The notes beneath the pieces were generated by a model that had not been told where the DNA came from, searched no databases, and saw nothing but the letters and a program-made list of their open reading frames with translations. From NCBI GenBank assembly GCA_964496505.1, contig CAZBZV010000004.1, positions 5,811 to 69,810 of the forward strand: 64,000 nt of DNA, written 5' to 3'. Positions 38,856 to 64,000 of this stretch are shown in pieces (the stretch's first letter is position 1; each line of letters opens with the position of its first letter). This DNA is from an uncultured Ignavibacteria bacterium. GTDB lineage: Bacteria > Zixibacteria > MSB-5A5 > JAABVY01. A program made the translations under genes and the position numbers.

Positions 38856-40652
38856 TCAGCTCTTCTTTCCTTTCTTCTTGGATTTCTTCTTGGCCCTCTT
38901 TTTCCTGCCCTTATCTTGACAGGCTGAGCACAGAGTATGTGTCTCATCTACCCAATAGCATGGATCCCCCATATCATCAACACATGGCGCTGAATCGGTG
39001 CAACCGCATTTCCGGCATATTCCAGGCGTTAAAGATTTTTTCTTCTTAGTCTTATTCTTGCCGGCTGCCTTCTTCTTTCCTGATTTCTTCTTTGTCTTTC
39101 CCGGCGGCTCTTCCTCGAGCTTGTCCGGAAAGATTGACTGGTAGGATTTCTTGGTGAATGGCGGCCATGATTTCGGGCGCTTGATGGTTTCGACAGCCGA
39201 GACTTTGTAACGCCCGAAATCCAGGCCCAAAAGTTTGTCTGTAAAATCGTTCAGGTCCTTTTCGAATTTATTGACCGGTTCATGCCAGATCTTGACCTGG
39301 CTTTCGATAGAAGTAAGATACTCAAGCATTCCATCCCTGCACTGATCAATGACCATTGATCTGAGCTTTTTGGTTTCGCCGTTATTATTTGCAAATGCCT
39401 TCCATCTTTCATATCCCAAATAATCCTTGGCGCCAGTACCATAGGAAAGCAAGAATCTCAGCATATTCAATACTTCAAATGGGTCATCGCCTGAGAAGAA
39501 TTTACAGGACTTAAGCTTGCGGATGTGATCATCCAATTGGCTGATTATCCAGACAAAGCGCCTGATCTCGAGCTTGATTTCCTTTTCCTCCTGGGTCATT
39601 GGGCCGATCTTTTTACCGGAATTCTCACCCGCCGTGGCTGGTCTCTCGGGTTTTATCCAGGACAGTTGCCCTGCAGCTCCGCCATCGGCTATAATTACAG
39701 GTATAGCGCCCCTAAAATCTTTGGAGGTCTCTTCATAATCAAACCTCGCAAGCACTGGAGCCGGTAAGGTCCTGCCTGGTATTTTCCCTGGATAATAGCC
39801 TTCTCGGGATATCAGCTTGAGATTCTTGTGTTCGGCGCTTAGTTCGGTGTATTTTTTCTGAATAAAGGCATCCAGCTTTTTCGTATAGCATCCGGCATCC
39901 AGACATTGCTCATCGCGCTTAACAGCTTTTTCGGTCAGATCTTCGTGGAATAATTCAGGCTGCCGGCCGGAACGCTTGGGACAGTTGGTGCAGGCCCCCG
40001 CTTCCGGAAGCAGTGTGTCATCATTCAGATCCCAGGGCGCAGACCTCAAGGTCTGATGGTATTCGGACAAAAATTCTCGTATCTGATATTCGGTAATCAG
40101 TTCATCAGGGATGTAAGAAACTTCCTGGAATATCTCATCCTGAACATCTTCATTCCACTTGGCCACAAGCTCGAGAGCCGAGACAGTAATCAGATCGGCG
40201 TTTTCTTTGAGCCAATCCTTCCATTCCTTCGAGAGCTTCAATAACTGCGCTCGCCTGGCCACGAACTGCTGTGTCTTTCCCAGCTCCGCGGCAGCTTCCT
40301 CATAATTCAGGCCGCGATCGAGTAAGATCTGAATCGCCTGGGCCTCCTCGAAAGGTTCGAGGTTTTTGCGCTGCAGGTTCTCGGTTACGCGTATGGCCTG
40401 TGCCTTCATATCATCAGCCTCGACAACCTCGGCCCTGATCTTGGCCTCTCCGAGAGATTTGATTGCCGCGAGGCGCCGATTGCCGGCAATCAGGTCATAT
40501 TTGGTCTTACCCTTTTTGCGGACAATGATGGGATTTAGAAGGCCGACCGCCTTGATGTTCTTGGCCAACTCCTCGACGGAAGCCTTGGTCACCTTCCGGG
40601 CATTGTCCTTTCCGATACTGATGCTCTTAACATCGATTAACTGTGTACTCAT
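38856..40652 (-). CDS. ParB-like nuclease domain protein with a C-terminal Cys-cluster (zinc ribbon) and a polybasic tail
   Basis: N-terminus KYDLIAGNRRLAAIKSLG...IRVTENLQRKNL (ParB box). C-terminus CRKCGCTDSAPC...CYWVDETHTLCSACQ followed by KGRKKRAKKKSKKKGKKS. Confidence 0.65.
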   Translation of the reverse strand: MSTQLIDVKSISIGKDNARKVTKASVEELAKNIKAVGLLNPIIVRKKGKTKYDLIAGNRRLAAIKSLGEAKIRAEVVEADDMKAQAIRVTENLQRKNLEPFEEAQAIQILLDRGLNYEEAAAELGKTQQFVARRAQLLKLSKEWKDWLKENADLITVSALELVAKWNEDVQDEIFQEVSYIPDELITEYQIREFLSEYHQTLRSAPWDLNDDTLLPEAGACTNCPKRSGRQPELFHEDLTEKAVKRDEQCLDAGCYTKKLDAFIQKKYTELSAEHKNLKLISREGYYPGKIPGRTLPAPVLARFDYEETSKDFRGAIPVIIADGGAAGQLSWIKPERPATAGENSGKKIGPMTQEEKEIKLEIRRFVWIISQLDDHIRKLKSCKFFSGDDPFEVLNMLRFLLSYGTGAKDYLGYERWKAFANNNGETKKLRSMVIDQCRDGMLEYLTSIESQVKIWHEPVNKFEKDLNDFTDKLLGLDFGRYKVSAVETIKRPKSWPPFTKKSYQSIFPDKLEEEPPGKTKKKSGKKKAAGKNKTKKKKSLTPGICRKCGCTDSAPCVDDMGDPCYWVDETHTLCSACQDKGRKKRAKKKSKKKGKKS

Positions 40653-40670: not shown

Positions 40671-41618
40671 TCAATATTCCTCCTTTATGATTTCCATTGC
40701 CCGGTCGTAACCGTACTCGATCCCCGCATTGATCTGCTTTCTGTCAAAACTGAGGGTGTCGATTACTTCATGCTCCGGAGCTATAACTGTGAACTTGATC
40801 TTGCGATATTTTTCACCCACGCAGTTGGAATCTACCATCTGATTGATAAAATTCATGTAGGACAGATCTTCGTTGTAGATCTCATTGAGCGCCATGGAGA
40901 GCGACCGGGTCCCGATATCCAGTATATTGCCCTTGTATTCCCAGCTCTCGATATCAAGCGGGCTGCATTCAATCAGAATGATGTAATCAGCTCCGGCATC
41001 GAGGCCCTCTTTTAGCGGCGTCATATTTCGAACACCGCCATCAAGATAATGCCTGCCGGCAATCTCAACAGGCGCCGCATATCCAGGCATACAGCAGCTG
41101 GCATATATGAAGTCATGGGGATGCGCATTTACACCGCGGCCATCAGGAGTCTCGACAGTACCATTGCTGATTGCGATCGTGTAATACTTTCCGTCCTCAA
41201 GGCAGACTACGCCGGAACGGGCGGGGATTTTGAATTTTGATATGTCAGCATATTCACCTATAAGTCTGCGTAGCGGAGAGAAGTCGTATATGCTTGTAAT
41301 ATCGAATGTGGCCAGGCCGAGCTTTGACCAGAGATACTTCCAACCGATGTCGGTGAAACTGTGGGCTTCGCGGTAGATGTCTTTTTGGCGAATTGATCCC
41401 CAGATTCGCTCCATCATCTCGTAATCCTGCATGGCCACAAATACCATCTGCAGGTTGCCGGTGGATACACCGGAAACGCCGGTTATTTCAAAGCCTTGAT
41501 CGAGCAAGGCCTGAATGGCTCCAACCTGGAAGCAGCCCTTGGCGCCGCCTCCGGAGAGTACCAGCCAGATCTTCATATCATCTATTTCGAATTCAATCAT
41601 ACCGATTCTCCCAGTCAT
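40671..41618 (-). CDS. Patatin-like phospholipase
   Basis: Oxyanion motif LSGGGAKG, nucleophile elbow GVSTG (GxSxG) and the catalytic DGG triad (YLDGGVRN). Confidence 0.75.
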   Translation of the reverse strand: MTGRIGMIEFEIDDMKIWLVLSGGGAKGCFQVGAIQALLDQGFEITGVSGVSTGNLQMVFVAMQDYEMMERIWGSIRQKDIYREAHSFTDIGWKYLWSKLGLATFDITSIYDFSPLRRLIGEYADISKFKIPARSGVVCLEDGKYYTIAISNGTVETPDGRGVNAHPHDFIYASCCMPGYAAPVEIAGRHYLDGGVRNMTPLKEGLDAGADYIILIECSPLDIESWEYKGNILDIGTRSLSMALNEIYNEDLSYMNFINQMVDSNCVGEKYRKIKFTVIAPEHEVIDTLSFDRKQINAGIEYGYDRAMEIIKEEY

Positions 41619-41869: not shown

Positions 41870-42754
41870 TTAGCATTCCGGAAAACTCCTTTCCTGGCAT
41901 CCTTCAGGCCATTCGCTCATGTCGTGGCTGACCCTGCCGTCAATCTCTACCTGCTTGACGAAGCACGGCACTCCGGCCTCTTTGCACTGGTCAACTATTG
42001 ATTCAATCCATTCGAGCTTACAGGGACGGCGTTTCGGGCCGGATTCACAGCCGACAATTACCCAATCAAGTATTGGGGTTGGATTTTTGCATAGATGATG
42101 ATCCCAATGTATATACATGTCTTTCCGTGAGTATCCGCAACCTTGACATCTCAAATAATCTTTAACATCAATCTCCCCCAGCATTGGCTCTATGCTGACG
42201 AATTTAACAGCAGCCGGAACCTGCAACAGAATCGGAATGCGTTTGTCGGCCTGCTCTTGATTCTCGGCTGTGACACCAAGCCAGATATGATGCAGATATT
42301 CCTCTGGAATTTTGCTCCGGGTCTCGAGGTTTGTTCCCGGCATAAACACCGCGCCGTCTCTTTTCAGATGCTCATAATATTCCAGCATTCTCTGCGGCCG
42401 TTTGGTTAGCAATATTATAGTTTTCTTTTGATTGCGTACCCATGCAAACTGCCTGAAACATCTATCCAGAATATCAAATGGCACATTCTCGTGAAAAATG
42501 TCTCCCATGCTTCCGATGAATATCTTTTTTCCGGCCGGAGCTTTTCGTATTTGTTCAAGTGCCGGTCTATGAAAAGCAACCTGGCCAGTCCAACCACATT
42601 CATTAATTACAGTTTGGTACTGTGGCTTTCCCATTGCCTTAAGTCTCTTGGCCATTCGTTCAGCATAACAATTTTGACAACCTGGGCTGACCTTAGTGCA
42701 GCCGACAATGGGGTTGATGGTCATGTCAGTCCATTCAATCTTGCTCTTTGCCAT
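41870..42754 (-). CDS. Phage Gp37/Gp68 family protein (DUF5131)
   Basis: The N-terminus MAKSKIEWTDMTINPIVGCTKVSPGCQNCYAERMA is the family hallmark. Confidence 0.7.
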   Translation of the reverse strand: MAKSKIEWTDMTINPIVGCTKVSPGCQNCYAERMAKRLKAMGKPQYQTVINECGWTGQVAFHRPALEQIRKAPAGKKIFIGSMGDIFHENVPFDILDRCFRQFAWVRNQKKTIILLTKRPQRMLEYYEHLKRDGAVFMPGTNLETRSKIPEEYLHHIWLGVTAENQEQADKRIPILLQVPAAVKFVSIEPMLGEIDVKDYLRCQGCGYSRKDMYIHWDHHLCKNPTPILDWVIVGCESGPKRRPCKLEWIESIVDQCKEAGVPCFVKQVEIDGRVSHDMSEWPEGCQERSFPEC

Positions 42755-43199
42755 AAATTGTCCCTTTCAGCAATACACTCAACTCTGCCGCGATCTTCCT
42801 GATTTCATGGTCTGGAAAATTGAGCAAGTTTTCGTATTCTATCGATATGAATTGTGGTTTAATGTTGAGCTTATAACTGCCGTTTCTGTCAGAAACAATC
42901 AGGCCGCCCTCAGGATAAATCTTAAATGTGTCCTGAATGCCATTGCAATCCACTTCCTTTTTGAGATTGTATATGTATCTGGTCTGGCAATCCCCGCAAT
43001 CAAGCTTCTCTTTGTGGAGCCAGCCGCTGGCATCTTCATAAGCCCAAGTCGATGTGACAATGGCTCGATAAGCCAGCTTCGTTAAATAGGTAAAGCTCTT
43101 TTGGGTCAAGAATAAATCCTTATCCAAGAAACGGATGTGAAATCTCAGGCCGCTTCCTACATATTTGGGTTTTCCGATAATATTCAATTCCTCACTCAC
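42735..43199 (-). CDS. Hypothetical protein
   Basis: ORF from the track only. Confidence 0.3.
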   Translation of the reverse strand: MSEELNIIGKPKYVGSGLRFHIRFLDKDLFLTQKSFTYLTKLAYRAIVTSTWAYEDASGWLHKEKLDCGDCQTRYIYNLKKEVDCNGIQDTFKIYPEGGLIVSDRNGSYKLNIKPQFISIEYENLLNFPDHEIRKIAAELSVLLKGTIYGKEQD

Positions 43200-45022
43200 G
43201 CCAATTCCTCCGGAAACAATACTTCCTGTTTGGCCCGGACTTCCCGCCCAGGCAGATAGTCTATAACTTCAAATGTGTTATGAAGCCGGCCCATGTAATT
43301 ATTGAAGGCCCCACCGCCTTCCGCATATCCGAGAGTCCTGGCCAGCTCCTCTCTGCTGATACTGTCCGGGTATATCTGAATCAAATACTCGAGGATCTTC
43401 TGGAGTGGAGCTTGCCTAATTATCTTCAGCCAGCCGCGATGCAATTCCTCAACTCCGGCAATCGGCTCGACCATGCCGGCGGCTTCCCTTCCGGAGTCAG
43501 TCAGCTCGACTTTGCCGCCCTCCGGATAATCGATGTAACCGCCAGACCGAAGCCTGCCGAGAAGGTTATTGAAAGCCCCGCCTTTCGGACTATACTCTGC
43601 CTTGGCCGCGACCATTTCCTTGCTGGGTTTATCTATGCCCAGGGCTTCGAATGATGCTATGGCCTGGAGGACGCGGCGTTGAGGATTGGAGAGTTCAGAA
43701 TTTACAACTGAAGGTAATTTCTTAATCGGTCTCTCCGTGAAATTCTCAACTGTAGATCTGTCCTGAAGGTCGTTGGCTATTGATTGGCCGCGATCAGACG
43801 CTAACCCCTCCATACGATCGAGCAGTTGCCACGGCCTTAGAGACTTTTCCGTAAGCTCCTCGACGTCCTTGCCAATTTTCTGGCTCATTAAATGTATGGC
43901 CTGGAGCGTATTCTCAATTTCACCGCCTGCCTTCTTCAATTCATTTTGCAGAATCCGGATTTGCTTTTTCTGAGCCTGAATTATCGGCCCATGATTACAT
44001 GGCGCCGGGGTATCCTTTTTCAAAAGAGTATTTTCGCGCTTAAGTGCGGACAGTTCTTTCTTCAACTCGACCATATCCTTGGCCCGCTTCTCTGCCTGCT
44101 GGGGAATATCCTCAAGTTTCTCAATCAGTTCTCTGATTTTGCCGGTAGCTTCCGGATGAGTTTCGATGTGCTGTGTTCCGATCTTGGGATGGGACGATTC
44201 AACATCACCGACCTTAACCAGGACAATATCGTCAACCGGAATATATCCCTGGGAGCCTTCGTGTATCCGGAAGGCAGGGCCATAGCAGTGGAATTCCCCG
44301 GGCTGGAGCTTCCGCAGCGCCAGGCTCTCTTCCCTCGAGACAAATCCCAGCTCGTCTACAGCCCGCTTCCGATCGATATCCTGAATAGTCCTGCCGATCA
44401 TCTTATTGCCAAGTTCCGCCGCGGCATCCTTATTCAGCTTGGCCAGTCGCTGGGTTGCCATGATTGTACATATCCCGCGTTTGCGTCCTCGAGTGGCCAA
44501 GTCGATTACTGCCGCTGCGGATTCCGCTTTGCCCTTTTCCGGGCAGATTAAATGCGCTTCGTCCAATACCACCAGAACTGGATGTCGGTATTTGCGCGGC
44601 GCACTGATCAGGGCTTCTGAGAATGCTTTAACGTATGCAATCCGCTCATGTTTTTTCAGTTCGTATAGATCAAAGATGCAGGATGCATTGAACTCGAGAA
44701 GCTTTTTGGCCAGGAGCTTCACTGATTTCAAATCGGCCGGAATATCCCCACCCTTGCCGGCAATGATGTAATCGAACTTTTCTCTGAGTGTATGGAATTC
44801 ACCTTCCAGGTCGATTACCAGTTGCTGGATCCTGCCGTGTGACTGCTCGAGGATTCTCCGGATAAGCCAGGACTTCCCGGCGCCGCTCATGGCCTGGATC
44901 ATGAGACGGGTTTCGGTTAATGTCGCCAGGTCAAGCCCGACCGTTTTATTGTCATGCAGCCCGAGATTTATCATCTTTGCCCTTTGTGATTTGAGTTGGA
45001 ATTTTCTGATCATGCTGGCCAT
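43196..45022 (-). CDS. HerA/DUF87-like P-loop ATPase with two C-terminal winged-helix-like repeats; start uncertain (45022 or 44974)
   Basis: Walker A QAMSGAGKSWL, Walker B VLVVLDEAHLI and a downstream ATQR motif. The C-terminal tandem repeats each contain GGAFNN(L/Y)(L/M)GRL. The track start at 45187 overlaps the upstream zinc-finger ORF. Confidence 0.55.
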   Translation of the reverse strand: MASMIRKFQLKSQRAKMINLGLHDNKTVGLDLATLTETRLMIQAMSGAGKSWLIRRILEQSHGRIQQLVIDLEGEFHTLREKFDYIIAGKGGDIPADLKSVKLLAKKLLEFNASCIFDLYELKKHERIAYVKAFSEALISAPRKYRHPVLVVLDEAHLICPEKGKAESAAAVIDLATRGRKRGICTIMATQRLAKLNKDAAAELGNKMIGRTIQDIDRKRAVDELGFVSREESLALRKLQPGEFHCYGPAFRIHEGSQGYIPVDDIVLVKVGDVESSHPKIGTQHIETHPEATGKIRELIEKLEDIPQQAEKRAKDMVELKKELSALKRENTLLKKDTPAPCNHGPIIQAQKKQIRILQNELKKAGGEIENTLQAIHLMSQKIGKDVEELTEKSLRPWQLLDRMEGLASDRGQSIANDLQDRSTVENFTERPIKKLPSVVNSELSNPQRRVLQAIASFEALGIDKPSKEMVAAKAEYSPKGGAFNNLLGRLRSGGYIDYPEGGKVELTDSGREAAGMVEPIAGVEELHRGWLKIIRQAPLQKILEYLIQIYPDSISREELARTLGYAEGGGAFNNYMGRLHNTFEVIDYLPGREVRAKQEVLFPEELA

Positions 45023-45215
45023 ATCCAAGGATGTGATAGCGGCGAGATTCTCCGCACTTGCCGCAAGATGGGCTGTGCTTGTTAATTCCCAATTGCTGCA
45101 TTTCCCGGAATGTCCTCGAATCTTTGTGACCGCATTTATAGCAGCCGTAGTGGATTGTGGGATTCTGGGGGTCTGCCTGGGTATCAAATCTTACGCTTCT
45201 ATATGCGGGATGCAT
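44952..45215 (-). CDS. Hypothetical zinc-ribbon protein
   Basis: Motifs CYKCGH....CGKCGE. Confidence 0.35.
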   Translation of the reverse strand: MHPAYRSVRFDTQADPQNPTIHYGCYKCGHKDSRTFREMQQLGINKHSPSCGKCGESRRYHILGYGQHDQKIPTQITKGKDDKSRAA

Positions 45216-45323: not shown

Positions 45324-45950
45324 TTAGCTTGCCATCATGCTGGTCTGAGACTGATTTGAGTTATGCTTCATGATGATCTTGTCCACCTTGTCCAGTCTGG
45401 TCTTAAGCTGCTTGTCGGTCAGCTTTTTCTTTTTATCCTCATTCTCTATTTTGGCGATTGCCTTCTTTGCCTCGGATATCCGGTTGACGTCCTCGGAGAA
45501 TGCCAGGTCATCGAGGCGCTGACGCTCGGAAGATTTTTTGGAGGTATCTTCTTTTGCCGGCTCCGGAGGATGCACAACGCGCTTGATGGCATTCACTCTG
45601 GACCTGAATTTGGTGGCCGGGAGCTTTTCCTTGGCGTCCTCTTCCTTCAGATCCTTTATCATCTTCATGGCTTCCTTGTTTTTCTGGGTGGCCTCTTCTT
45701 CTTCGAGGTTCGCCAGTTCGATTTCAGCATCCCTGCGGTTAAAGAAGTCCATCTGTGCCTGTCCAAGCTCTTCAATGGTTATTGAGCAGCTTGCTTCGTT
45801 GGCCTGGTCGAGCAGGTCATTTACATTGATGCCCCGATTTCTATCGATCCTGAACTCAAAGACAATCCGGCCCACCATCTTCTCGAGATCACCGATCTTC
45901 CTCATCCGGAATGTCGGGGGTGACATTGTGCCTTGAATCTTAAACGACAT
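45324..45950 (-). CDS. Hypothetical coiled-coil protein
   Basis: ORF from the track only. Confidence 0.3.
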   Translation of the reverse strand: MSFKIQGTMSPPTFRMRKIGDLEKMVGRIVFEFRIDRNRGINVNDLLDQANEASCSITIEELGQAQMDFFNRRDAEIELANLEEEEATQKNKEAMKMIKDLKEEDAKEKLPATKFRSRVNAIKRVVHPPEPAKEDTSKKSSERQRLDDLAFSEDVNRISEAKKAIAKIENEDKKKKLTDKQLKTRLDKVDKIIMKHNSNQSQTSMMAS

Positions 45951-45976: not shown

Positions 45977-46594
45977 TTAATCAAGTCTTACAAACCTCGG
46001 TGTCCCATCCGGATAATGCTCCAGATGGTTCTCATCAACATTATCAAAATCAATAGTAGCAATGGCCTTTGCCAGCGCAAGCAGACCCCCATTGCAAATG
46101 GTAAATCCCTTCTTAATGTATTTCTGCATTCTCTGCATCGTAGAGAGTGGCTTCGGTAATGAGTTAATTACCAGCTTACGAGCGGCCAAATCTATGAAAA
46201 ACGTATCGTGATGGATTACTTCAACCGTGTCTACAGCGGCACAACATACAGTGAAATCAAAATTGTCAATCGTTTCCTGGGGGCCCGGGAAATAGATTTT
46301 TATAAGCTGGAAATGATGCTTTTTATACCTATAATCTATGGAATTCGTAAAATCCCCGATTAATTCGGCTCCCTCATTATTCCAGACTTTTTCATTGAAA
46401 TACTCCTTTGCCCTCTCGAGCTCGTATTCGTCAGAAAAATAGATATCTATATCACTGTGGGGATATCCATAAGAAAAAAAGTCTCTCAATGCGCCTCCTG
46501 CAATCCAGCAGTTTCTGCCACAACCGGCCTGACCAAGCAACTCGCCGAGAATAAGATTATCAAAATAGCTTACACATCTATCTAATTGCTCCAT
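45977..46594 (-). CDS. Minimal Pol-beta-superfamily nucleotidyltransferase related to the poly(A) polymerase/CCA-adding enzyme head domain
   Basis: Segment WIAGGALRDFFSYGYPHSDIDIYF fits the GGxxRD-(8-9)-DxD motif of the PolyA_pol/CCA head domain. At 205 aa it lacks the neck, body and tail domains. Confidence 0.55.
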   Translation of the reverse strand: MEQLDRCVSYFDNLILGELLGQAGCGRNCWIAGGALRDFFSYGYPHSDIDIYFSDEYELERAKEYFNEKVWNNEGAELIGDFTNSIDYRYKKHHFQLIKIYFPGPQETIDNFDFTVCCAAVDTVEVIHHDTFFIDLAARKLVINSLPKPLSTMQRMQKYIKKGFTICNGGLLALAKAIATIDFDNVDENHLEHYPDGTPRFVRLD

Positions 46595-46657
46595 AATATT
46601 CCTCTCAAAATCACTGCGGCCATAATCAGGATCATTAGGATTCCTGTTACAATGACC

Positions 46658-46912
46658 TCAAGTTCTTGCTTCTGATATCTCTTTTTTGCGCTCATTCCTG
46701 CGTTTCTCATAGTCCTGTTGATTGAAATAGTTGACGATCGCGATTGAATCATCGATCGCATTCAGTTCAATGACCTGGTGATTGCGATATTCATTGACTT
46801 TTGCCGGCATAAGGTCCTGGCTGAATATCTCTTCCTGGTACCACTGCCGGCGGCGTTTCTTAACCGCCTCCAGGAAGGCGATTACTTCTTCTGGTGATAT
46901 ATGGTTGGTCAT
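46658..46912 (-). CDS. Hypothetical protein
   Basis: ORF from the track only. Confidence 0.3.
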   Translation of the reverse strand: MTNHISPEEVIAFLEAVKKRRRQWYQEEIFSQDLMPAKVNEYRNHQVIELNAIDDSIAIVNYFNQQDYEKRRNERKKEISEART

Positions 46913-47121
46913 GGTATCATCTCTCCGCTCTGCTTTTGCGCCTCAGCCTTGGCTGCTTCAATGCTTTTAGCGATGCCAGAATAGAGTCTGCCCTTGGAAT
47001 CCCGATAATCCCACTGAACCCTCATTCCCTGAGCAATCGGCGAGTAATATTCCTCATAGGCGAATTGCCCTCTGTCATTAGTAATTGTGCAGCCATTCTT
47101 ATTAAGATTGGTTTCCGTCAT
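46909..47121 (-). CDS. Hypothetical protein
   Basis: ORF from the track only. Confidence 0.3.
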   Translation of the reverse strand: MTETNLNKNGCTITNDRGQFAYEEYYSPIAQGMRVQWDYRDSKGRLYSGIAKSIEAAKAEAQKQSGEMIP

Positions 47122-56286: not shown

Positions 56287-56523
56287 ATGGGGAGTTTTCA
56301 AGTGTACGTTGTGAAGGAAGGAACTAATCCTGTTGTTGGAGTGCCAGTGCGGCTGGAATTCCGAGGGCATAAACCCGGTATGAGCGCTGAAAAGCGAACG
56401 GATATAAATGGCTCCGTGCAGTTTAATTATTACGAGGAGAGTGAAGTTGAGATCTTCATCGCGGGCCGCGATTGCGGGGCTTACAAGTACAAAAACGGAG
56501 AAAGCATTACAATAAAAACATAG
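56287..56523 (+). CDS. Small beta-rich hypothetical protein
   Basis: ORF from the track with a GGAGGGAG RBS. Confidence 0.4.
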   Translation: MGSFQVYVVKEGTNPVVGVPVRLEFRGHKPGMSAEKRTDINGSVQFNYYEESEVEIFIAGRDCGAYKYKNGESITIKT

Positions 56524-57157: not shown

Positions 57158-59464
57158 ATGGCCATACAATATTATTCTCATAGCGAAAATTTATGCGGGG
57201 ATCACAATCCATTGTCTGATCATCTCATTGGCGTGGCCAAGCTCGCCCGAGAATTTGGTACTCCATTAGGAATAGAAAAGGAATCCGAGCTTGCCGGAAT
57301 TCTGCATGACCTTGGTAAATATGGTGATTTATTTCAGAAACGTTTACGCGGTGAAATTAGAGGTATTGATCACTGGTCTGCCGGAGCCTGGACTGCCATT
57401 CAAAGATATAAGCAAAATGGCATAGCCTCTGCCCTGGCAATCCAGGGACACCATATAGGCCTGCAGGAGGTCTCTAAGGATGCCCTGCAAGGAATGGACT
57501 TGCAAGCATTATCAGAGCAGCATCCATTAAATCTGAGGCTGTCTGAACAAGATTTGAATAATCTGATTTATCGGCTCAAGGCAGATGGCTTAACACTGCC
57601 AAATGATTTAAATCATTCACTATTTGATATTAGCGAGTCGAATAAAACCCCAGCCTCATCGATGCTTGACTTTCGAATGCTGTATTCCATTCTTGTAGAT
57701 GCTGATTATTTAGATACTGAAGCACATTTCAATGCAGAATCAGCAGGCATAAAAAACTATCGAAAACAAGGACAATCTATCAAATCTCATGAGGCATTTA
57801 ATATTCTTCTATCATATATTAAAATCCTCGCAAAAAACTCAACTTCAGCTATAAAAATGAATGACTTGCGAGCAAAGCTGCTTGAAGATTGCTTATCAGC
57901 CGCTGAACGCCAAACCGGATCATTTAATCTTTCAGCCCCAACAGGCTCAGGAAAAACACTTAGCATGATGGCATTCGCCTTAAAGCATGCTATCAAGAAT
58001 GATCTAAGAAGGATTATTATTGTCATCCCTTATTTGAGCATTATTGAGCAAACTGCCCGGGTGCTGAAAAACATATTGTCTGACAAATTCGGAAAAGATT
58101 ACATTATCGAAGATCATAGTCTGGTTGAATCAGGAGCAAGCAGTAATGTTAATTCCGATTCACGGCAAGCAAAACTGTTATCAGAGAATTGGGATGCTCC
58201 AGTAATAATCACAACCAGCGTACAATTCTTGGAATCAATCTTCAGCAACCGACCGTTTAGATGTCGCAAGCTCCACAGAATGGCCAAAAGCGTTGTTCTT
58301 TTTGATGAAGTTCAGACACTTCCAACCCATGCGATTATTCCAACGCTTGCAACCCTCTCACGCATTTGTGAGAGATATGGTTCTTCTATAGTCTTCTCTA
58401 CGGCGACTCAGCCCGCTTTTAATCATTTGCATAAACATGTTTCTGTTCTCTGCAACCAAGGTTGGGAACCATCGGAAATTGTAAATGATCATCAGTCCAT
58501 GTTCAAGAGGGCCAGTCGAGTGAGTGTCTCTTGGCCTAACGAGAATGAAAGAGTACCATGGGAACAGTTGGCTGGGATGCTGACTAAACACTCCCAGGTA
58601 CTGTGCATTGTCAATTTAAAACGGCATGCCCATACTCTTATTGATGAATTGGCAAAAACCGATAATACAGGGTTGCTGCATTTATCAACAAACATGTGCC
58701 CTGCCCATCGCGCGACGGTTTTAGAGCATGCCTCTCAAATGCTTGGAGAAGGCTCCCAATGCAGGCTCATATCCACTCAATGTATTGAAGCCGGAGTAGA
58801 TATTGATTTCCCGGTCGTTTACAGGGCATTCGGCCCTCTCGATTCTATAGCCCAGGCCGCGGGCAGGTGTAATCGCAATGGCAATAATGATCTGGGGAAT
58901 GTGACTGTCTTTATCCCCGACGAACCATGGAGTAAATCATATCCAGATGGAGCTTATAAACAGGCAGCAGAAGTAACAGCTTTAATATTGAAAAGATGCG
59001 GAACATCGAAAGCTGATATCACAGATACAAATCTTTTCGAAGATTATTTTCGGGAGCTTTATTCTATCAGAAATATTGGAAATGATAAAACGGAATTAAC
59101 AATAGCAATAAAAAGACTTGATTTTGTGACCACCGCTAAGAAATACTATGTTATTAAGAATCAGGATACTATCAGGATTTTGGTACCATATGATTTGAAG
59201 GACTATTCACAATTAAGAGAAGCATTGGATGAGAAGGGTCTTACGAAGGAATGGATAAATTCTGCACAATACCATAGCATTAACATTTTCAGGCCGAAGC
59301 CGGATTCAAATGCATGGAATTACCTCGATCCCGCCCCTATAGGGCCAAGAATAAAACATAATAGAGAAAAATCAGATAGCTGGTATGTTTATTTGGATGA
59401 GGAACATTACGATGCAATTAAGGGATTGCTGATACCCAAAGACACTGAATACATAATTGCTTAA
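57158..59464 (+). CDS. cas3: Cas3 HD-nuclease/helicase (type I)
   Basis: HD motif ILHDLGKY. Helicase Walker A SAPTGSGKT and the DExQ box LFDEVQ. Confidence 0.9.
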   Translation: MAIQYYSHSENLCGDHNPLSDHLIGVAKLAREFGTPLGIEKESELAGILHDLGKYGDLFQKRLRGEIRGIDHWSAGAWTAIQRYKQNGIASALAIQGHHIGLQEVSKDALQGMDLQALSEQHPLNLRLSEQDLNNLIYRLKADGLTLPNDLNHSLFDISESNKTPASSMLDFRMLYSILVDADYLDTEAHFNAESAGIKNYRKQGQSIKSHEAFNILLSYIKILAKNSTSAIKMNDLRAKLLEDCLSAAERQTGSFNLSAPTGSGKTLSMMAFALKHAIKNDLRRIIIVIPYLSIIEQTARVLKNILSDKFGKDYIIEDHSLVESGASSNVNSDSRQAKLLSENWDAPVIITTSVQFLESIFSNRPFRCRKLHRMAKSVVLFDEVQTLPTHAIIPTLATLSRICERYGSSIVFSTATQPAFNHLHKHVSVLCNQGWEPSEIVNDHQSMFKRASRVSVSWPNENERVPWEQLAGMLTKHSQVLCIVNLKRHAHTLIDELAKTDNTGLLHLSTNMCPAHRATVLEHASQMLGEGSQCRLISTQCIEAGVDIDFPVVYRAFGPLDSIAQAAGRCNRNGNNDLGNVTVFIPDEPWSKSYPDGAYKQAAEVTALILKRCGTSKADITDTNLFEDYFRELYSIRNIGNDKTELTIAIKRLDFVTTAKKYYVIKNQDTIRILVPYDLKDYSQLREALDEKGLTKEWINSAQYHSINIFRPKPDSNAWNYLDPAPIGPRIKHNREKSDSWYVYLDEEHYDAIKGLLIPKDTEYIIA

Positions 59465-59498
59465 TCATACACATTTAATTAAATCTATGGGAGGAATC

Positions 59499-60248
59499 AT
59501 GAAATCAAAGGATCAGGCCTTGGAGGTCTGGGGCGATTTTGCCTGCTTTACAAGGCCGGAGATGAAAGCGGAACGATTCAGCTATCCTGTGATTACGCCT
59601 TCTGCGGCTCGCGGCATTTTCGATGCCATTTACTGCAAGCCGGAGCAATTCCGATGGCAAATCACAAAGGTTGAAATCATATCCTTACCAAGCTATATCG
59701 CTTTGAGGAGAAATGAGGTTAAGGAGAAGATTAGCACAAAGGCAATTCAGGCTTATATCAAGGGTAAAAAAGACCCTGTGCCAATATTTGCTGACGGTGA
59801 TATCAGACTAACAGGATCTGATGTCAAGGGCCGTACACAGAGGCAAACCATGGCATTGCGTGATGTGCACTATCATTTACATGCCGAAATTCGTCCCTGG
59901 CCGGAGTATGAGGATCGCATTCAGGATTTTGAGGCACAATTCAGGCGGAGGGCATCTAAGGGGAAATGTTTCCAGCAGCCATATTTCGGATGCCGTGAAT
60001 TTCCCGCATTTTTCCGGCTAATCGAACTCCATGAGGAGCAGTCAAAAACAATTGATCAAGACTTGGGGGATATGGGATGGATGGTATATGATGTTTTTGA
60101 TCTGGCTAATAAAGGCAAAAGCGACAGCAAACCTTTTATCAGCCTTTTTAAACCATCCATTGAAAACGGTGTATTGCATATTCCATCATACGACTCTGAT
60201 GAAGTTATCAAACCTAATCAGGGAGGTTACGATGCTGCATCTACTTAA
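59499..60248 (+). CDS. cas5c: Cas5c (Cas5d) of type I-C
   Basis: N-terminus MKSKDQALEVWGDFACFTRPE is the Cas5c hallmark. Start moved to 59499, which has a GGGAGG RBS 5 nt upstream; the track start 59457 overlaps cas3. Confidence 0.85.
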   Translation: MKSKDQALEVWGDFACFTRPEMKAERFSYPVITPSAARGIFDAIYCKPEQFRWQITKVEIISLPSYIALRRNEVKEKISTKAIQAYIKGKKDPVPIFADGDIRLTGSDVKGRTQRQTMALRDVHYHLHAEIRPWPEYEDRIQDFEAQFRRRASKGKCFQQPYFGCREFPAFFRLIELHEEQSKTIDQDLGDMGWMVYDVFDLANKGKSDSKPFISLFKPSIENGVLHIPSYDSDEVIKPNQGGYDAAST

Positions 60249-61989
60249 GGATTATGCTGAGAGACACGGCATTGTGGCTGAACCGGGTTTCACGAGAATG
60301 GATATTAAATGGGCAATTATCTGCGATGATTCCGGCCAATTTGAAGAGATTATTGAGTTGGGCAATCCGGAAGATAAAAGAAACACAGGTATTACATTTT
60401 TAAAAGTCCCAGATATCAGCTTTACCAGCGGTGGGAAAAAGATGAGCAAGCCCCTGTGGGAAACCGCGAAGGTGATCGCTTTTCTTGGCTCCCCAGCTGA
60501 TGATGAGAGTATTAAACCTAAGCATAAATACTTTATTGACCAGCTAAAATCAGCCTCGGAATACTATAGCCCTCTGACCAACATATCTGAGCAGTTAAGT
60601 AATTCAGGTACTGTCGAATGGCTAAGATCGAAAATGGACGATCTTGGAATAAAGCCAACTGATAAGATCACATTTAAAATCGGCCCGGAGTATATAATCG
60701 ATCTTGAAGATTGCCAGGAATGGTGGAGGAAAATTCATAAATCCTCGAAGAAGAAAAAGGCCAAAAAGAAAAGCGTGGATGAAATGCTCTGCCTTATGAC
60801 TGCGGAACAGACAAGGCCAGCACTAATCCATAACAAAATAAAGCAACTCGCCAATGTTGGCGGGCAGGCCTCGGGTGATGCCTTGATTAGCTTCAAGCAG
60901 GAATCTTTCCAGTCATTTGGACTCCCAAGTTCAGCCAATGCCCCTGTTTCTGAAGAGAATATGACCACTTATACTCAGGCTCTAAATGTGCTCATTAATG
61001 AATCCGGCAGAAAGTTGGGAGATACCAAAATTGTCCATTGGTTCAAAAATCGAATCAGGCCTGAGGATGATCCGCTTAGCTGGCTTGTCGAGTCAGAGGA
61101 GATTAGCGAGCTAAATGCTCAGCAACGGGCAAAAGAGATGCTTGACAGCATCAGATCCGGAAAAAAACCGGAATTGCATGATAATTTCTACTACGCCTTA
61201 ACTGTCTCTGGTGCGAGCGGAAGGGTCATGGTCCGTGACTGGATGGAAGGCCAGTTCTCGGATTTAGTCGAGAACATAAACACATGGTTCGATGATCTAT
61301 CGATTGTCAATCGAAATGGCTCTGGCCTTGCACCTCCGCCGAAATTCATATCCGTTCTCGGGGCATCGGTCAGGGTATTGGATGATTTGCATACACCATT
61401 TGTCGCAAAAATGTGGCGGAGGGCTCTTAAGGGTGAGACCTTCCCTGCCTTCGCTCTGGCTGGAGCAGTCAAGAGAATGAAGATTGATATCATCAACGAT
61501 GAGCCCGCCAACCATGCCCGGGCAGGTCTGTTAAAAGCATATTTTGTTCGAAAAGAAAGATTTTATGGAAAGGATATAACTATGCAACCTTATCTGAACG
61601 AGGATCATCCTCATCCCGCATATCATTGCGGCCGATTACTTGCGGTTCTGGCAGCGTTACAGCGCAGAGCCCTGGGAGATGTTGGGTCCGGTATTATTCA
61701 GAGGTATTACACATCGGCATCCGCAACCCCCGCCCTTGTGCTTGGTAAACTCACCAGCGTCAGCCAGCATCATCTGAATAAAATTGAATCTGGAGGACTG
61801 AAGTACTGGTATGAAGGGAAAATTGCTGACATCTGGAGCAGGATCAAGGACCAGATTCCCGGAACGCTTTCTCTCGAAGAGCAAAGCCTCTTTGCTCTCG
61901 GATATTATCAGCAGATTGCCGATCTGCGAACCCGCAAAGTTGAAGCTATTGAAACAAATGAAGAATCAGGGGAGGTAGAAAATGTCTGA
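60232..61989 (+). CDS. cas8c: Cas8c (Csd1) large subunit of type I-C
   Basis: Position after cas5c and before cas7c. Start set at [13 protein letters not shown] (60232), which has a GGGAGG RBS; the track start 60031 overlaps cas5c. Confidence 0.8.
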
Positions 61990-62932
61990 ACCAATTAAAA
62001 ATCGTTATGAATTTATGCTGCTTTTTGAGTGTGAAAATGGAAATCCCAATGGCGATCCTGATGCAGGCAACGCGCCACGCATAGATCCGCAGGACTTACA
62101 TGGGCTTGTCTCAGATGTTGCACTGAAAAGGAGGCTACGCAATTATGTTCAAATTGCAAAGGGCAATAAAATGCCCTATTCCATCTTCATTGAGCACTCC
62201 ACAAATCTAAACACAAAAATAGTAAGATCACATGAAGAAACAGAAGGCGGTTTAGGAGATGGTTCAAAGGGTGCCAAAAAGGAAAAGGTGGATTTGGCGA
62301 AGCGCTGGATGTGTGATAATTTCTTTGACATACGGGCTTTTGGTGCAGTAATGAGCACAGGCCCGAATTCAGGCCAGGTTCGCGGTCCTGTGCAGTTCTC
62401 TTTCGCACGTTCAGTCGATCCAGTGCTTCCACTCGATCTGTCAATAACTCGCATGGCTGTGGCGGAAAATGTCAAGGGTGCAAAATCAAGCGCTGACTAC
62501 GAAAAATGGGAAAGCGAGCAGCCGGAAGACAAGCTTCGGACAATGGGACGGAAAGAATTGATACCCTATGGCCTTTACGTGGCCAAGGGTTTTATCAGCG
62601 CTAATCTTGCGCAAGAGACTGGATTTGGCGATAATGATCTTGAGCTTTTGTGGGAAGCATTATTGAATATGTATGAGCATGATAGGTCTGCCAGTAAAGG
62701 ACATATGGCGGTCAGAAATCTTTTCATATTTAAGCATGTTGGTACTGATACTGACCAGGAACAGCGAGTCAGGGAAGCCATACTTGGATGCGCCCCCGCG
62801 CATAAATTGTTTGATCTTGTAAAGATTAATAAGAAAGAAGATGTTAAAGCCCCGCGAAAATATGTGGATTATGATGTCAACATAGATGAGGGTAGCCTGC
62901 CCTCAGGGGTAGAGTTGATAAGGAAATCGTAG
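61982..62932 (+). CDS. cas7c: Cas7c (Csd2) of type I-C
   Basis: N-terminus [24 protein letters not shown] is the Csd2 hallmark. Confidence 0.9.
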
Positions 62933-62933
62933 C

Positions 62934-63656
62934 ATGTTTTCTGAAGATGATCTGCTGCCGATTTCCGCTCTGCAGCATCTAGCATTCTGCAAAAGACAGT
63001 GGGGATTAATGTACCTCGAGGGTATATGGGCTGAGAACCTTCTCACTGTGGAAGGTTCTCAGCTTCATGAAAAGGCTGACGAGCCCTCACACCAAATACA
63101 GGATGGTGTCTTGATTGCCCGGGGTCTAAAGCTTAGATCATTGAGAATCGGTCTGATTGGCAGAGCTGATGTCGTTGAATTTCATAATATCCCGCTCAAA
63201 CACTTGTTGGCTGGGAGAGAGGACAATGTATCAAATACACCAAACATATTCGATTTGATTAAACGGGAAATGGACATTGTCCCCTTCCCTGTCGAATACA
63301 AACACGGTAAGCCTAAAATCGATTTATGCGATGAAGTCCAGCTTTGCGCGCAGGCATTGTGCCTGGAGGAAATGCTGGAGATCGAAGCGCCGCGGGGGGC
63401 GATTTTCTACGGAAAACCACGGCGTAGAACAGGTGTCGATTTCGATGACAAATTGAGAAGAGCAACAGAAGAATATGCTGCCGAATTGCACCATTTGACT
63501 CTCCTTGGCAAAACACCTATTGCCAAATACGAAAAAAAGTGCAAAAGCTGTTCCATTATGGATTACTGTCTGCCAAAATCTGCCGGACATGGAAAAAGCG
63601 CCAGGAAATATATCTCCGATCAGATTGATCAGCAGTTGTCTGATACCGAGGATTGA
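62934..63656 (+). CDS. cas4: Cas4 RecB-like nuclease with an Fe-S cluster
   Basis: An N-terminal Cys plus the C-terminal CKSCSIMDYC cluster. About 240 aa, located between cas7c and cas1. Confidence 0.85.
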   Translation: MFSEDDLLPISALQHLAFCKRQWGLMYLEGIWAENLLTVEGSQLHEKADEPSHQIQDGVLIARGLKLRSLRIGLIGRADVVEFHNIPLKHLLAGREDNVSNTPNIFDLIKREMDIVPFPVEYKHGKPKIDLCDEVQLCAQALCLEEMLEIEAPRGAIFYGKPRRRTGVDFDDKLRRATEEYAAELHHLTLLGKTPIAKYEKKCKSCSIMDYCLPKSAGHGKSARKYISDQIDQQLSDTED

Positions 63657-63658
63657 AC

Positions 63659-64000
63659 CATGAAAAAGATGTTGAATACGCTGTATGTAACCGTTCCGGA
63701 CGCATACTTATCCAAGGATGGCGAGAATGTTGTGGTAAGCATCGAAAATGAGAAGAAAATGAGGATTCCGATCCATAACCTGGATGGCATCGTCTGCTTC
63801 GGGCATGTCCTCTGTACCCCGGCCCTTCTGGGACTTTGCGCCTCGAGAAATGTATCTGTTACCTTTCTAAGTATGTATGGTCGATTTATGGCCAGAGTTC
63901 AGGGTCCTGTTTCCGGTAATGTGCTATTGCGAAGAGAACAATACAGGCTTGCTGATAATCCTGATTTTTGTACTGAGATTTCATCCGGAATAATATTTGC
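63659..64000 (+). CDS. cas1: Cas1 (N-terminal part; truncated by the window end)
   Basis: Manual translation gives MKKMLNTLYVTVPDAYLSKDGENVVVSIENEKKMRIPIHNLDGIVCFGHV, a typical type I-C Cas1 N-terminus. Confidence 0.85.

Follow-up and report, generated by a model that had tools for sequence, protein, structure and literature searches.

What does a bacteriophage do with a nucleotidyltransferase (NTase) of only 205 amino acids (aa), and on which acceptor might such an enzyme act? The question is raised by a gene on the minus strand, at positions 45977–46594, of a 64,000-nucleotide stretch of DNA from an uncultured Ignavibacteria bacterium (contig CAZBZV010000004.1, positions 5,811 to 69,810, of GenBank assembly GCA_964496505.1); this whole stretch is referred to as the window. 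The window represents a contractile-tailed phage, in which tail sheath, baseplate wedge, tape measure, portal, large terminase and prohead protease were recognised. An initial annotation made from the sequence alone had seen in the gene product a minimal NTase and had proposed three roles: repair of tRNA 3' ends, synthesis of a nucleotide signal and a toxin–antitoxin type module. It overlooked a link to the catalogued Gad2 (anti-Gabija) family, PF26128. The window NTase belongs, with great confidence, to this family (PF26128/PHROG 4400), which is a phage-specific branch of the class-II (CCA-adding/poly(A) polymerase-like) pol-beta NTases. The role that we somewhat favour is that of an enzymatic counter-defence factor.

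Membership of the Gad2 family

A large homology search returned an identical entry, P0001 (100% over 205 aa), together with 149 relatives, at E values down to 1.9e-68. P0001 carries the precomputed domain PF26128.2, PF26128 is present in all 120 relatives listed, and the context tables of related loci give this domain the name 'Gad2'. The assignment is a precomputed annotation: the Pfam and NCBIfam sets scanned here hold no Gad2 model, and genuine Gad2 goes unmatched in them too, which explains why the first scans came back empty. A literature search for 'PF26128' gave no result.

Direct comparisons lead to Gad2 itself. tblastn against phage genomes matched, in Bacillus phages SPbetaL6 and SPbetaL7, the gene annotated as Gad2 (E 3e-7), and BLASTP against SPbetaL7 Gad2 aligned window residues 16–167 with Gad2 residues 14–163 at 32% identity (E 9e-14). 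Alignment of the family profile with Gad2 by hhalign gave a probability of 99.0% and an E value of 7.4e-18; its 165 columns extend as far as Gad2 residue ∼180. In a search seeded with Gad2, PF26128 was the sole domain in Gad2 and its full-length orthologues (386–474 aa, Bacillales), and a Gad2 fragment spanning residues 175–400 was devoid of it: PF26128 therefore corresponds to the N-terminal NTase domain, the part common to the window protein. As read from these alignments, the link to Gad2 is at the level of the domain, not of the orthologue.

The conserved residues and the PHROG assignments agree with this picture. Eight core residues (G33, G34, D48, D50, F112, D113, T115 and R155), each conserved in 95–99% of 314 relatives aligned to the family hidden Markov model, are all kept in Gad2, which retains P149 and Y159 as well. 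The best PHROG of the window NTase is phrog_4400 (2.9e-28), phrog_18122 being matched only at 3e-16 and via the N-terminal domain, whereas Gad2 matches phrog_18122 over its full length (1e-89) and phrog_4400 through residues 22–216 only. The window protein is an ordinary, typical short-form member of a family already present in Pfam and PHROGs.

Fold and catalytic residues

An AlphaFold2 model of the window NTase, for which a 53-sequence family alignment was both the input and the source of the residue numbering used here, reached a predicted local distance difference test score (pLDDT) of 95.2 and a predicted template modelling score (pTM) of 0.88. When the model was compared with the Protein Data Bank (PDB) by Foldseek, all 42 matches at E ≤ 1e-4 were class-II CCA-adding, A-adding or poly(A) polymerase (PAP) enzymes, with E values from 1.6e-7 to 1e-4, probability 1.00 and 150–200 aligned columns. 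The matched structures are 340–520 aa long against 205 aa for the window NTase, and the target-normalised template modelling scores lie between 0.23 and 0.35. Matches to MenT1, ANT(2'') and GLD-2 fell behind the class-II enzymes at E values of at least 0.025, and no cGAS, DncV or CD-NTase structure was among the top 50 PDB fold matches. The model indicates, with high confidence, that the protein consists of a class-II head domain followed by the initial helices of the neck, without body and tail domains.

Searches with the sequence gave fainter signals. The window NTase scores 13.5 bits against PF01743 (E 0.094), below the gathering cut-off of 23 bits that is exceeded by its closest homologues, P0002 (26.6 bits) and P0035 (26.1 bits). 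An NCBIfam scan returned zero matches, CCA models included, as did a PADLOC scan at E ≤ 10, CD-NTase models included; the profile checks proposed with the initial annotation, against PF01743 and the CD-NTases, thus came out below cut-off and empty, respectively. A search of the PDB with the single sequence yielded only noise, and the family profile found weak matches via motif A, to human TRNT1 (E 1.7e-3) and Escherichia coli PAP.

The motifs of class-II enzymes, reportedly defined by Li et al. 2002 and related work, were mapped with the E. coli cca and pcnB sequences plus a PAP alignment. Three elements were located:

46436..46507, minus strand: motif A, residues 30–53 of the window NTase, WIAGGALRDFFSYGYPHSDIDIYF, which contains the GGALRD...DIDIYF motif; G33-G34 helix cap, R37, metal-binding D48/D50
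46235..46270, minus strand: motif B equivalent, residues 109–120, IDNFDFTVCCAA; F112-D113-F114-T115 where class-II enzymes have RRDFT
46058..46201, minus strand: three helices (residues 132–137, 149–161 and 168–179), motif C–D region at the head/neck junction, from DSSP, hhalign, Foldseek and conservation

Motif A is canonical, with G33, G34, R37, D38, D48 and D50 all present, and aligns with the GGAVRD...DID of human TRNT1 and E. coli PAP. G33, G34, R37, D48 and D50 are invariant in 53 homologues, and G33, G34, D48 and D50 are found in 96–98% of the 314 relatives. The near-canonical head-domain motif that had first drawn attention to this 205-aa reading frame is therefore real, and the description of the product as a phage-encoded minimal pol-beta/class-II NTase is borne out by the 42 fold matches and the invariant D48 and D50: the searches did not lead to a non-catalytic family and the catalytic carboxylates are in place. 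With its metal-binding carboxylates kept, the window NTase is probably an active enzyme.

Motif B departs from the class-II pattern. The family consensus enFDFTvc aligns with qRRDFTIN of PAP and kRRDLTIN of E. coli CCA enzyme, so that N111-F112-D113 stand opposite R-R-D and the RRD of motif B is lacking. The replacement is a family trait: F112, D113 and T115 are conserved in 95–99% of the 314 relatives, F112 in 99%. In CCA enzymes the motif B arginines contact the ribose 2'-OH and the triphosphate.

In the motif C–D region the residues conserved across the family are D135, P149, R155, Y159 and G163, and a D-L...R-x-L and P-L...R...Y...G-F pattern is recognisable in the window NTase. hhalign places residues 107–172 on residues 86–158 of E. 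coli CCA enzyme, the motif B–C–D region, in a weak alignment (E 3.4e-3). Here K148-P149-L150-S151 lie under E-D-P-L-R of E. coli CCA enzyme, with the Glu, Asp and Arg missing, and the family consensus reads (F/Y/K)PLST. Motif D EDxxR thus appears to be absent, on a C–D mapping that is statistically weak (E 3.4e-3) and finds support in the residues that are conserved. The EDxxR motif provides CCA enzymes with their amino-acid template for C and A. As both the motif B arginines and EDxxR are lost, the nucleotide specificity should not be CCA-like, and deoxynucleoside triphosphates (dNTPs) may be admitted. The claim that neck, body and tail are all missing holds for the body and tail; a part of the neck is present, as seen from the 150–200 columns aligned by Foldseek and from residues 107–172, which fall on the CCA head/neck junction. 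Since body and tail are gone, the acceptor should not be a canonically held tRNA.

These features bear on the proposal that the protein is a minimal CCA- or A-adding enzyme which repairs tRNA 3' ends and so counters host tRNA nucleases. Its attraction is plain: among solved structures the nearest folds are without exception those of CCA-adding, A-adding or PAP enzymes, motif A is near-canonical, P0002 and P0035 pass PF01743, some database records label relatives as CCA tRNA nucleotidyltransferase or polyA polymerase, and the phage carries one tRNA gene. However, four of six tested defining features failed. The change of RRD to N-F-D, the loss of EDxxR and of body and tail, the PF01743 score below cut-off, the lack of a match to any NCBIfam CCA model and an acidic isoelectric point (pI) of 5.0 disagree with this proposal, and the phenotype of the validated relative, Gad2, is directed against Gabija, a DNA-targeting system. 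Repair of tRNA is hence regarded as highly improbable.

A second alternative is an NTase directed at small molecules or nucleotides, either a minimal enzyme of the ANT type or one that makes or modifies a signalling nucleotide and interferes with host immunity. A length of ∼200 aa, with a head and a short helical bundle, is that of minimal small-molecule NTases, and an acidic pI suits a substrate other than nucleic acid. Two weak matches point the same way, one by Foldseek to ANT(2'')-Ia (E 0.027) and one between P0002 and the Pfam family Aminoglyc_resit (E 0.0017). Against this, class-II RNA 3'-end NTases are matched ∼10^5-fold more strongly, and the nucleotide-signal synthase of the initial annotation is disfavoured by the empty PADLOC scan and by the lack of cGAS and DncV structures among the top 50 fold matches. 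We know of no nucleotide signal employed by Gabija. An enzyme of this kind is improbable, if not to the same degree as tRNA repair.

The C-terminal peptide of the short forms

Downstream of the helices the protein ends in a peptide that marks a short-form subfamily:

45980..46024, minus strand: conserved C-terminal peptide, residues 191–205, LEHYPDGTPRFVRLD-COOH

F201 and D205 occur together in 155 of the 314 relatives, and in 152 of these 155 the Asp is literally the last residue. The tail goes with C167, found in 154 of the 155 tail-bearing relatives (Fisher p 6e-28), and is absent from all 16 long forms. The pattern in short forms is ...YPDGTPRF-x3-D-COOH, seen in the window and also in the related loci L007 (4923–5540) and L056 (2953–3597). 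Among cultured phages, short forms ending in Asp are encoded by CDS0192 of Moorella phage MTATph1 (...RRIRAVD) and by ORF 36 of the Streptococcus thermophilus Moineauvirus phage CHPC927 (...SFYEGID). In the AlphaFold2 model the pLDDT falls to 85, then 62, within the peptide, which might serve for docking or as a lid over the active site.

The long forms differ among themselves at this end. The C-terminal extensions of 10 long relatives match neither any Pfam family nor the Gad2 C-terminal domain. The family, as judged from its sequences, combines one conserved catalytic core with C-terminal modules that are interchangeable: the domain of Gad2, other domains, or a short invariant peptide. The F-x3-D-COOH peptide is a probable replacement for the Gad2 C-terminal domain as a targeting or regulatory element. 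Setting the tail-bearing short subfamily explicitly apart from genuine Gad2 is a modestly new step.

A split Gad2 was considered separately, in which either the 208-aa downstream open reading frame (ORF; 45324–45950) or the small upstream ORFs would supply the missing C-terminal domain. BLASTP of these against the Gad2 C-terminal half plus 15 long forms gave E values of at least 0.19, and the candidate was rejected.

A proposed counter-defence role

Gad2 is the second Gabija anti-defence protein: deletion of gad2 renders phage SPbetaL7 Gabija-sensitive, and a Gad2 homologue from a Brevibacillus prophage restores Gabija resistance (10.1101/2023.05.01.538930). The same study found that SPbetaL7 Gad2 is toxic on expression, and its NTase domain was predicted by AlphaFold (10.1101/2023.05.01.538930). 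On the defence-free Bacillus subtilis strain BEST7003 the gad2 deletion mutant could be both obtained and purified, and it had lost only its Gabija resistance (10.1101/2023.05.01.538930). Toxicity recurs in the NTase gp22 of phage Emajogi, annotated as a Gad2-family member and toxic under strong induction. Gabija has been described as a DNA-end-sensing system in a 2026 review, which names base modification as another escape route from it (PMC12904381). Gad2 is not mentioned in the companion Gabija structure paper.

By homology with Gad2, a counter-defence role can be ascribed to the window NTase with moderate confidence. The toxicity of Gad2 and of the Emajogi NTase suggests that the target would be a general cellular component, and that more is involved than binding of Gabija. 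In the mechanism proposed here, the GG/R37 helix cap and D48/D50 would bind a nucleoside triphosphate (NTP) or dNTP together with Mg2+, and D113 and T115 would lie close to its ribose; the nucleoside monophosphate would then be passed to a hydroxyl group of an acceptor. The enzyme would serve an accessory function, by which the phage disables or evades a DNA-targeting defence of its host, be it Gabija or an end-sensing system like it. Candidate routes are the modification of nucleic-acid 3' ends and the nucleotidylylation of a host protein, and the C-terminal F-x3-D-COOH peptide may act as a targeting or regulatory element. As to the acceptor, the sequence points both ways: every one of the closest folds belongs to an enzyme that extends RNA 3' ends, yet the pI is acidic. 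Taken as a whole, the statement that the window NTase is an enzymatic counter-defence factor of the Gad2 family is held to be slightly better than an even proposition.

Several observations weigh against this role. The first group concerns the distance from Gad2, a protein of 400 aa with a C-terminal domain of ∼220 aa, whereas the window NTase stops at 205. That missing domain, a potential determinant of the target, has no counterpart in an adjacent ORF. At positions where Gad2 has T37, S38, H135 and E163, the subfamily of the window protein has R, D, D and G, which are 84–97% conserved there. The full-length Gad2 clade is confined to Bacillales, and Gad2 corresponds over its full length to phrog_18122, as opposed to phrog_4400 for the window protein. 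A second group concerns the activity. The mechanism of Gad2 is still unsolved according to 2026 reviews (PMC12904381; PMC12881386), and an acidic pI of 5.0 argues against an extensive nucleic-acid-binding surface. The replication and recombination genes that recur around the NTase fit equally well a function in the phage's own DNA metabolism. Lastly, the family is very large and diverse, comprising 9,971 clusters at 50% identity, and its size, diversity and varied C-terminal modules imply that different branches may have different targets.

A bolder proposal is advanced tentatively, and we think it unlikely. The short tail-bearing NTases, about half of the sampled relatives, would be a distinct enzyme class rather than truncated Gad2, namely terminal (deoxy)nucleotidyl transferases or protein nucleotidylylases of replication/recombination modules. 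Their peptide would dock on a protein that processes or senses DNA ends, the change from Arg to Phe in motif B would allow dNTPs, and the enzyme would provide a general countermeasure against DNA-end-sensing defences (Gabija, possibly others).

Distribution and genomic context

The family is nearly restricted to viral sequence. An exhaustive profile search collected representatives of 9,971 clusters (50% identity) at E ≤ 1e-3 and 5,124 at E ≤ 1e-10, and the 150 best profile matches are mostly 190–240 aa long. Relatives are found in 134 phage records, 54 of them from Streptococcus phages and others from phages of Bacillus, Aeromonas, Vibrio, Maribacter, Bacteroides and Listeria, and at 42 loci of IMG/VR. 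A scan of 185,579 species-representative genomes, made with a single peptide pattern, found a relative on only three short contigs of metagenome-assembled genomes.

In the window the gene and its ribosome-binding site are arranged as follows:

45977..46594, minus strand: coding sequence of the Gad2-family NTase, 205 aa (ORF list; identical to P0001; AlphaFold2 model)
46601..46606, minus strand: Shine–Dalgarno sequence GAGAGG, separated by a 6-nt spacer from the ATG at 46594 (read from the sequence)

According to the ORF list the protein begins MEQLDRCVSYF, and its stop codon occupies 45977–45979. The plus strand of 45977–46594 contains many stop codons and is closed as a reading frame. The ORF is a genuine gene, far beyond chance, given its homologues, profile matches and AlphaFold2 model. 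The pI of the product is 5.0 against a family median of 6.2. The gene lies in a co-directional minus-strand block that runs from ∼52.8 kb down through the structural genes, and no promoter-like or terminator-like site flanks it on the minus strand, which places it inside a polycistronic unit. In the direction of transcription the order is a SbcD–SbcC fusion, three small ORFs, the NTase, the 208-aa ORF (45324–45950) and a HerA-like ATPase. The three small ORFs (46658–47432), previously said to follow the NTase, are thus upstream of it.

These neighbours are of some interest in themselves. The SbcD–SbcC fusion (47375–51031, minus strand) is a 1,218-aa protein that joins an SbcD/Mre11-type metallophosphoesterase (residues 17–247) to an SbcC/Rad50-type coiled-coil ATPase, and its ORF overlaps the adjoining ORF 47118–47432 by 58 nt. 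The small ORFs upstream of the NTase (46658–47432, minus strand) encode 84, 70 and 104 aa, and each adjacent pair shares a 4-nt overlap. The second of the three is a DUF3873 protein (E 7e-9), a family from Bacteroides thetaiotaomicron, which gives a weak hint of a Bacteroidota-related host; in the 104-aa product only 14 residues were matched to a 'Lsr2-like' PHROG. The HerA/FtsK-like ATPase (43196–45187, minus strand; 663 aa) matches DUF87 (E 1.2e-7). The protein contains a long coiled-coil, as well as two C-terminal repeats that resemble each other (...SPKGGAFNNLLGRL... / ...AEGGGAFNNYMGRL...). Its likeness to a 'terminase large subunit' PHROG is limited to the ATPase core, and it is distinct from the true terminase at 30052–32250.

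Neighbour clustering compared all against all ∼1,000 ORFs from 50 loci, in 49 of which the NTase is present. The commonest neighbour family, a DUF932-like protein, occurs in six of the 49 loci; DnaB follows with five, and SSB, a YqaJ-like exonuclease, PolB, PolA and ThyX are found in three each. The window's own neighbours do not recur in any of the 49 related loci. A Pfam census of 149 neighbours from 45 loci found no family in more than three proteins, the recognisable ones belonging mostly to replication, recombination and nucleotide metabolism. Neither the ORF clustering nor the Pfam census brought to light a conserved partner or operon for the NTase. The gene is a solo, mobile, accessory one that usually resides in DNA-metabolism modules.

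On these data the suggestion that the protein is a toxin or antitoxin of a MenT, AbiEii or MNT–HEPN-type module, paired with a small neighbouring ORF, can be judged. Three small, translationally coupled ORFs do lie immediately upstream (46658–47432), Gad2-family proteins can be toxic on over-expression, and MenT1 gave a weak match (E 0.025). That match has a probability of 0.69 and a root-mean-square deviation of 9.1 Å, against a probability of 1.00 for the CCA enzymes, and is ∼10^5-fold weaker than theirs. No neighbour in the window recurs across the 49 loci, no neighbour family exceeds six of them, PADLOC found no match, and the NTase gene is essentially limited to viral sequence. A toxin–antitoxin module is, of all the explanations considered, the one to which we give almost no credence.

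A further alternative places the enzyme in the phage's own DNA metabolism, where it would add nucleotides to DNA or RNA ends, or modify a nucleotide or base, during replication, recombination or modification. The contexts speak for it. The window NTase lies between the SbcD–SbcC fusion and the HerA-like ATPase; on two metagenome contigs from Logan (L002 and L003) the gene order is DnaC-like, NTase, DnaB; elsewhere the NTase stands beside SSB, PDDEXK and SNF2, or beside DNA ligase and Dam. In S. thermophilus phage CHPC927 (L056, 1257–4539) the order is RecT, an unknown gene, NTase, SSB and Holliday-junction resolvase, and in Bacteroides phage BF486P2 (L058, 1451–4964) the NTase sits between dUTPase and two dCMP hydroxymethyltransferase genes. 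The recognisable neighbours in the 45 loci are mostly replication and nucleotide-metabolism genes, and the change from Arg to Phe in motif B could loosen ribose discrimination and permit dNTPs. On the other hand, no single replication or modification gene co-occurs in more than six of the 49 loci, and the gene is distributed patchily, in the manner of an accessory gene. Phage lacking gad2 could be raised on defence-free BEST7003, Gabija resistance being its only loss. Moreover, the early and middle regions of phages mix anti-defence with replication genes, so that the context is not discriminating. A role in DNA metabolism is considered unlikely, and a counter-defence function remains the preferred reading. 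As a separate observation, the BF486P2 context raises a possible link of the NTase to DNA base-modification pathways.

Other features of the window

The phage has no close cultured relative by megablast of 12 kb, and no large terminase from a cultured phage exceeds 27% identity to its own. Several other elements of the window merit description. A patatin-like phospholipase is encoded at 40671–41618 (minus strand; E 7e-12 to Pseudomonas aeruginosa PlpD, PDB 5FQU), adjoined by a 598-aa protein with a ParB-like nuclease domain (38856–40652) and a DUF5131 protein (41870–42754). The sole tRNA gene, tRNA-Gly(UCC) at 32281–32356 (minus strand), is located just upstream of the large terminase gene, in the 3' end of the predicted ORF 32253–32972, which, given this overlap, is either shorter than listed or spurious. 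A perfect 22-nt tandem duplication, two copies of TTTTGTCCATCTTTGGGGGAAA, is found at 34395–34439, and there are no long ORFs between 34258 and 34700.

At one end of the window, from 57158 to 64000 on the plus strand, lies a type I-C CRISPR–Cas operon with the following genes:

57158–59464, plus strand: Cas3 (E 1e-94 to PDB 8G9U/8ZNS)
59457–60248, plus strand: probable Cas5
60031–61989, plus strand: Cas8c/Csd1 (E 2e-50)
61982–62932, plus strand: Cas7/Csd2 (E 9e-89)
62934–63656, plus strand: further ORF of the cas block

No CRISPR array was found within the window. Similar Cas7 proteins (48–51% identity) were limited to three 'Bacteriophage sp.' fragments, all unannotated and from human faecal samples, and the operon is either phage-encoded or the host flank of a prophage. 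Between the phage and cas blocks, a region of ∼4 kb (52681–56523) is a boundary of both strand and composition, distinguished by a drop in guanine-plus-cytosine (GC) content from ∼0.48 to ∼0.40–0.43 and by a change in the sign of the GC skew near 53–54 kb. It contains ORFs labelled, from their translations, as an excisionase/AlpA-like helix-turn-helix protein (52681–52890, minus strand), an AbrB-like protein (53056–53310, minus strand) and an XRE/CI-like repressor (53455–53910, plus strand), along with two predicted membrane proteins. The region has the appearance of either a lysogeny switch or the edge of a prophage.

Significance and comparison with known systems

Few anti-defence proteins are predicted to act as enzymes rather than as stoichiometric blockers, and Gad2 is among them. 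What the family conserves is a class-II-like NTase core of ∼180 aa, in ∼10,000 clusters at 50% identity that are almost exclusively viral. The window gene will not surprise a specialist; the mechanism of the family, by contrast, is a testable question. A confidently modelled, stand-alone member of 205 aa is a handy minimal protein with which the nucleotide and the acceptor could be identified, with the conserved terminal peptide as a ready mutational handle. The existence of a short subfamily distinct from Gad2 also calls for caution over blanket 'anti-Gabija' annotation of PF26128 proteins.

MenT and AbiEii (PDB 8AN5, 8RR5) are likewise small NTases of the pol-beta fold that can be toxic, and MenT acts on nucleic-acid 3' ends. 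The window NTase differs from them in having no cognate partner gene and in its viral rather than cellular distribution. ANT(2'')-Ia (PDB 4WQK, 5CFU) is of comparable size and, like the window NTase, combines a pol-beta head with a short helical region; the two resemble each other only marginally (E ∼0.03, 73–102 columns), and the GGxxRD and FDFT motifs of the window protein are of class-II type.

The class-II CCA-adding and A-adding enzymes and PAP I (PF01743; PDB 1MIV, 5HC9, 4WC2, 3AQL) share with the window NTase the fold of the head and the start of the neck. They also have in common motif A GGxxRD...DxD, the Asp and Thr of motif B and a C–D pattern of D-L...R-x-L and P-L...R...(F/Y)...G-(F/Y). 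In contrast to these enzymes, the window NTase is half-sized, carries x-F in place of the RR of motif B and has no canonical route for holding tRNA or for templating C, C and A.

With Gad2 the comparison is closest. The anti-Gabija phenotype has been demonstrated for the long form only, and the F-x3-D-COOH peptide that ends the window NTase is a feature of the short forms. Both proteins are encoded by accessory phage genes and share a homologous NTase domain, N-terminal in Gad2 and assigned to the same Pfam domain, in which the core G-G...D-x-D...F-D-F-T...P...R...Y is common to the two.

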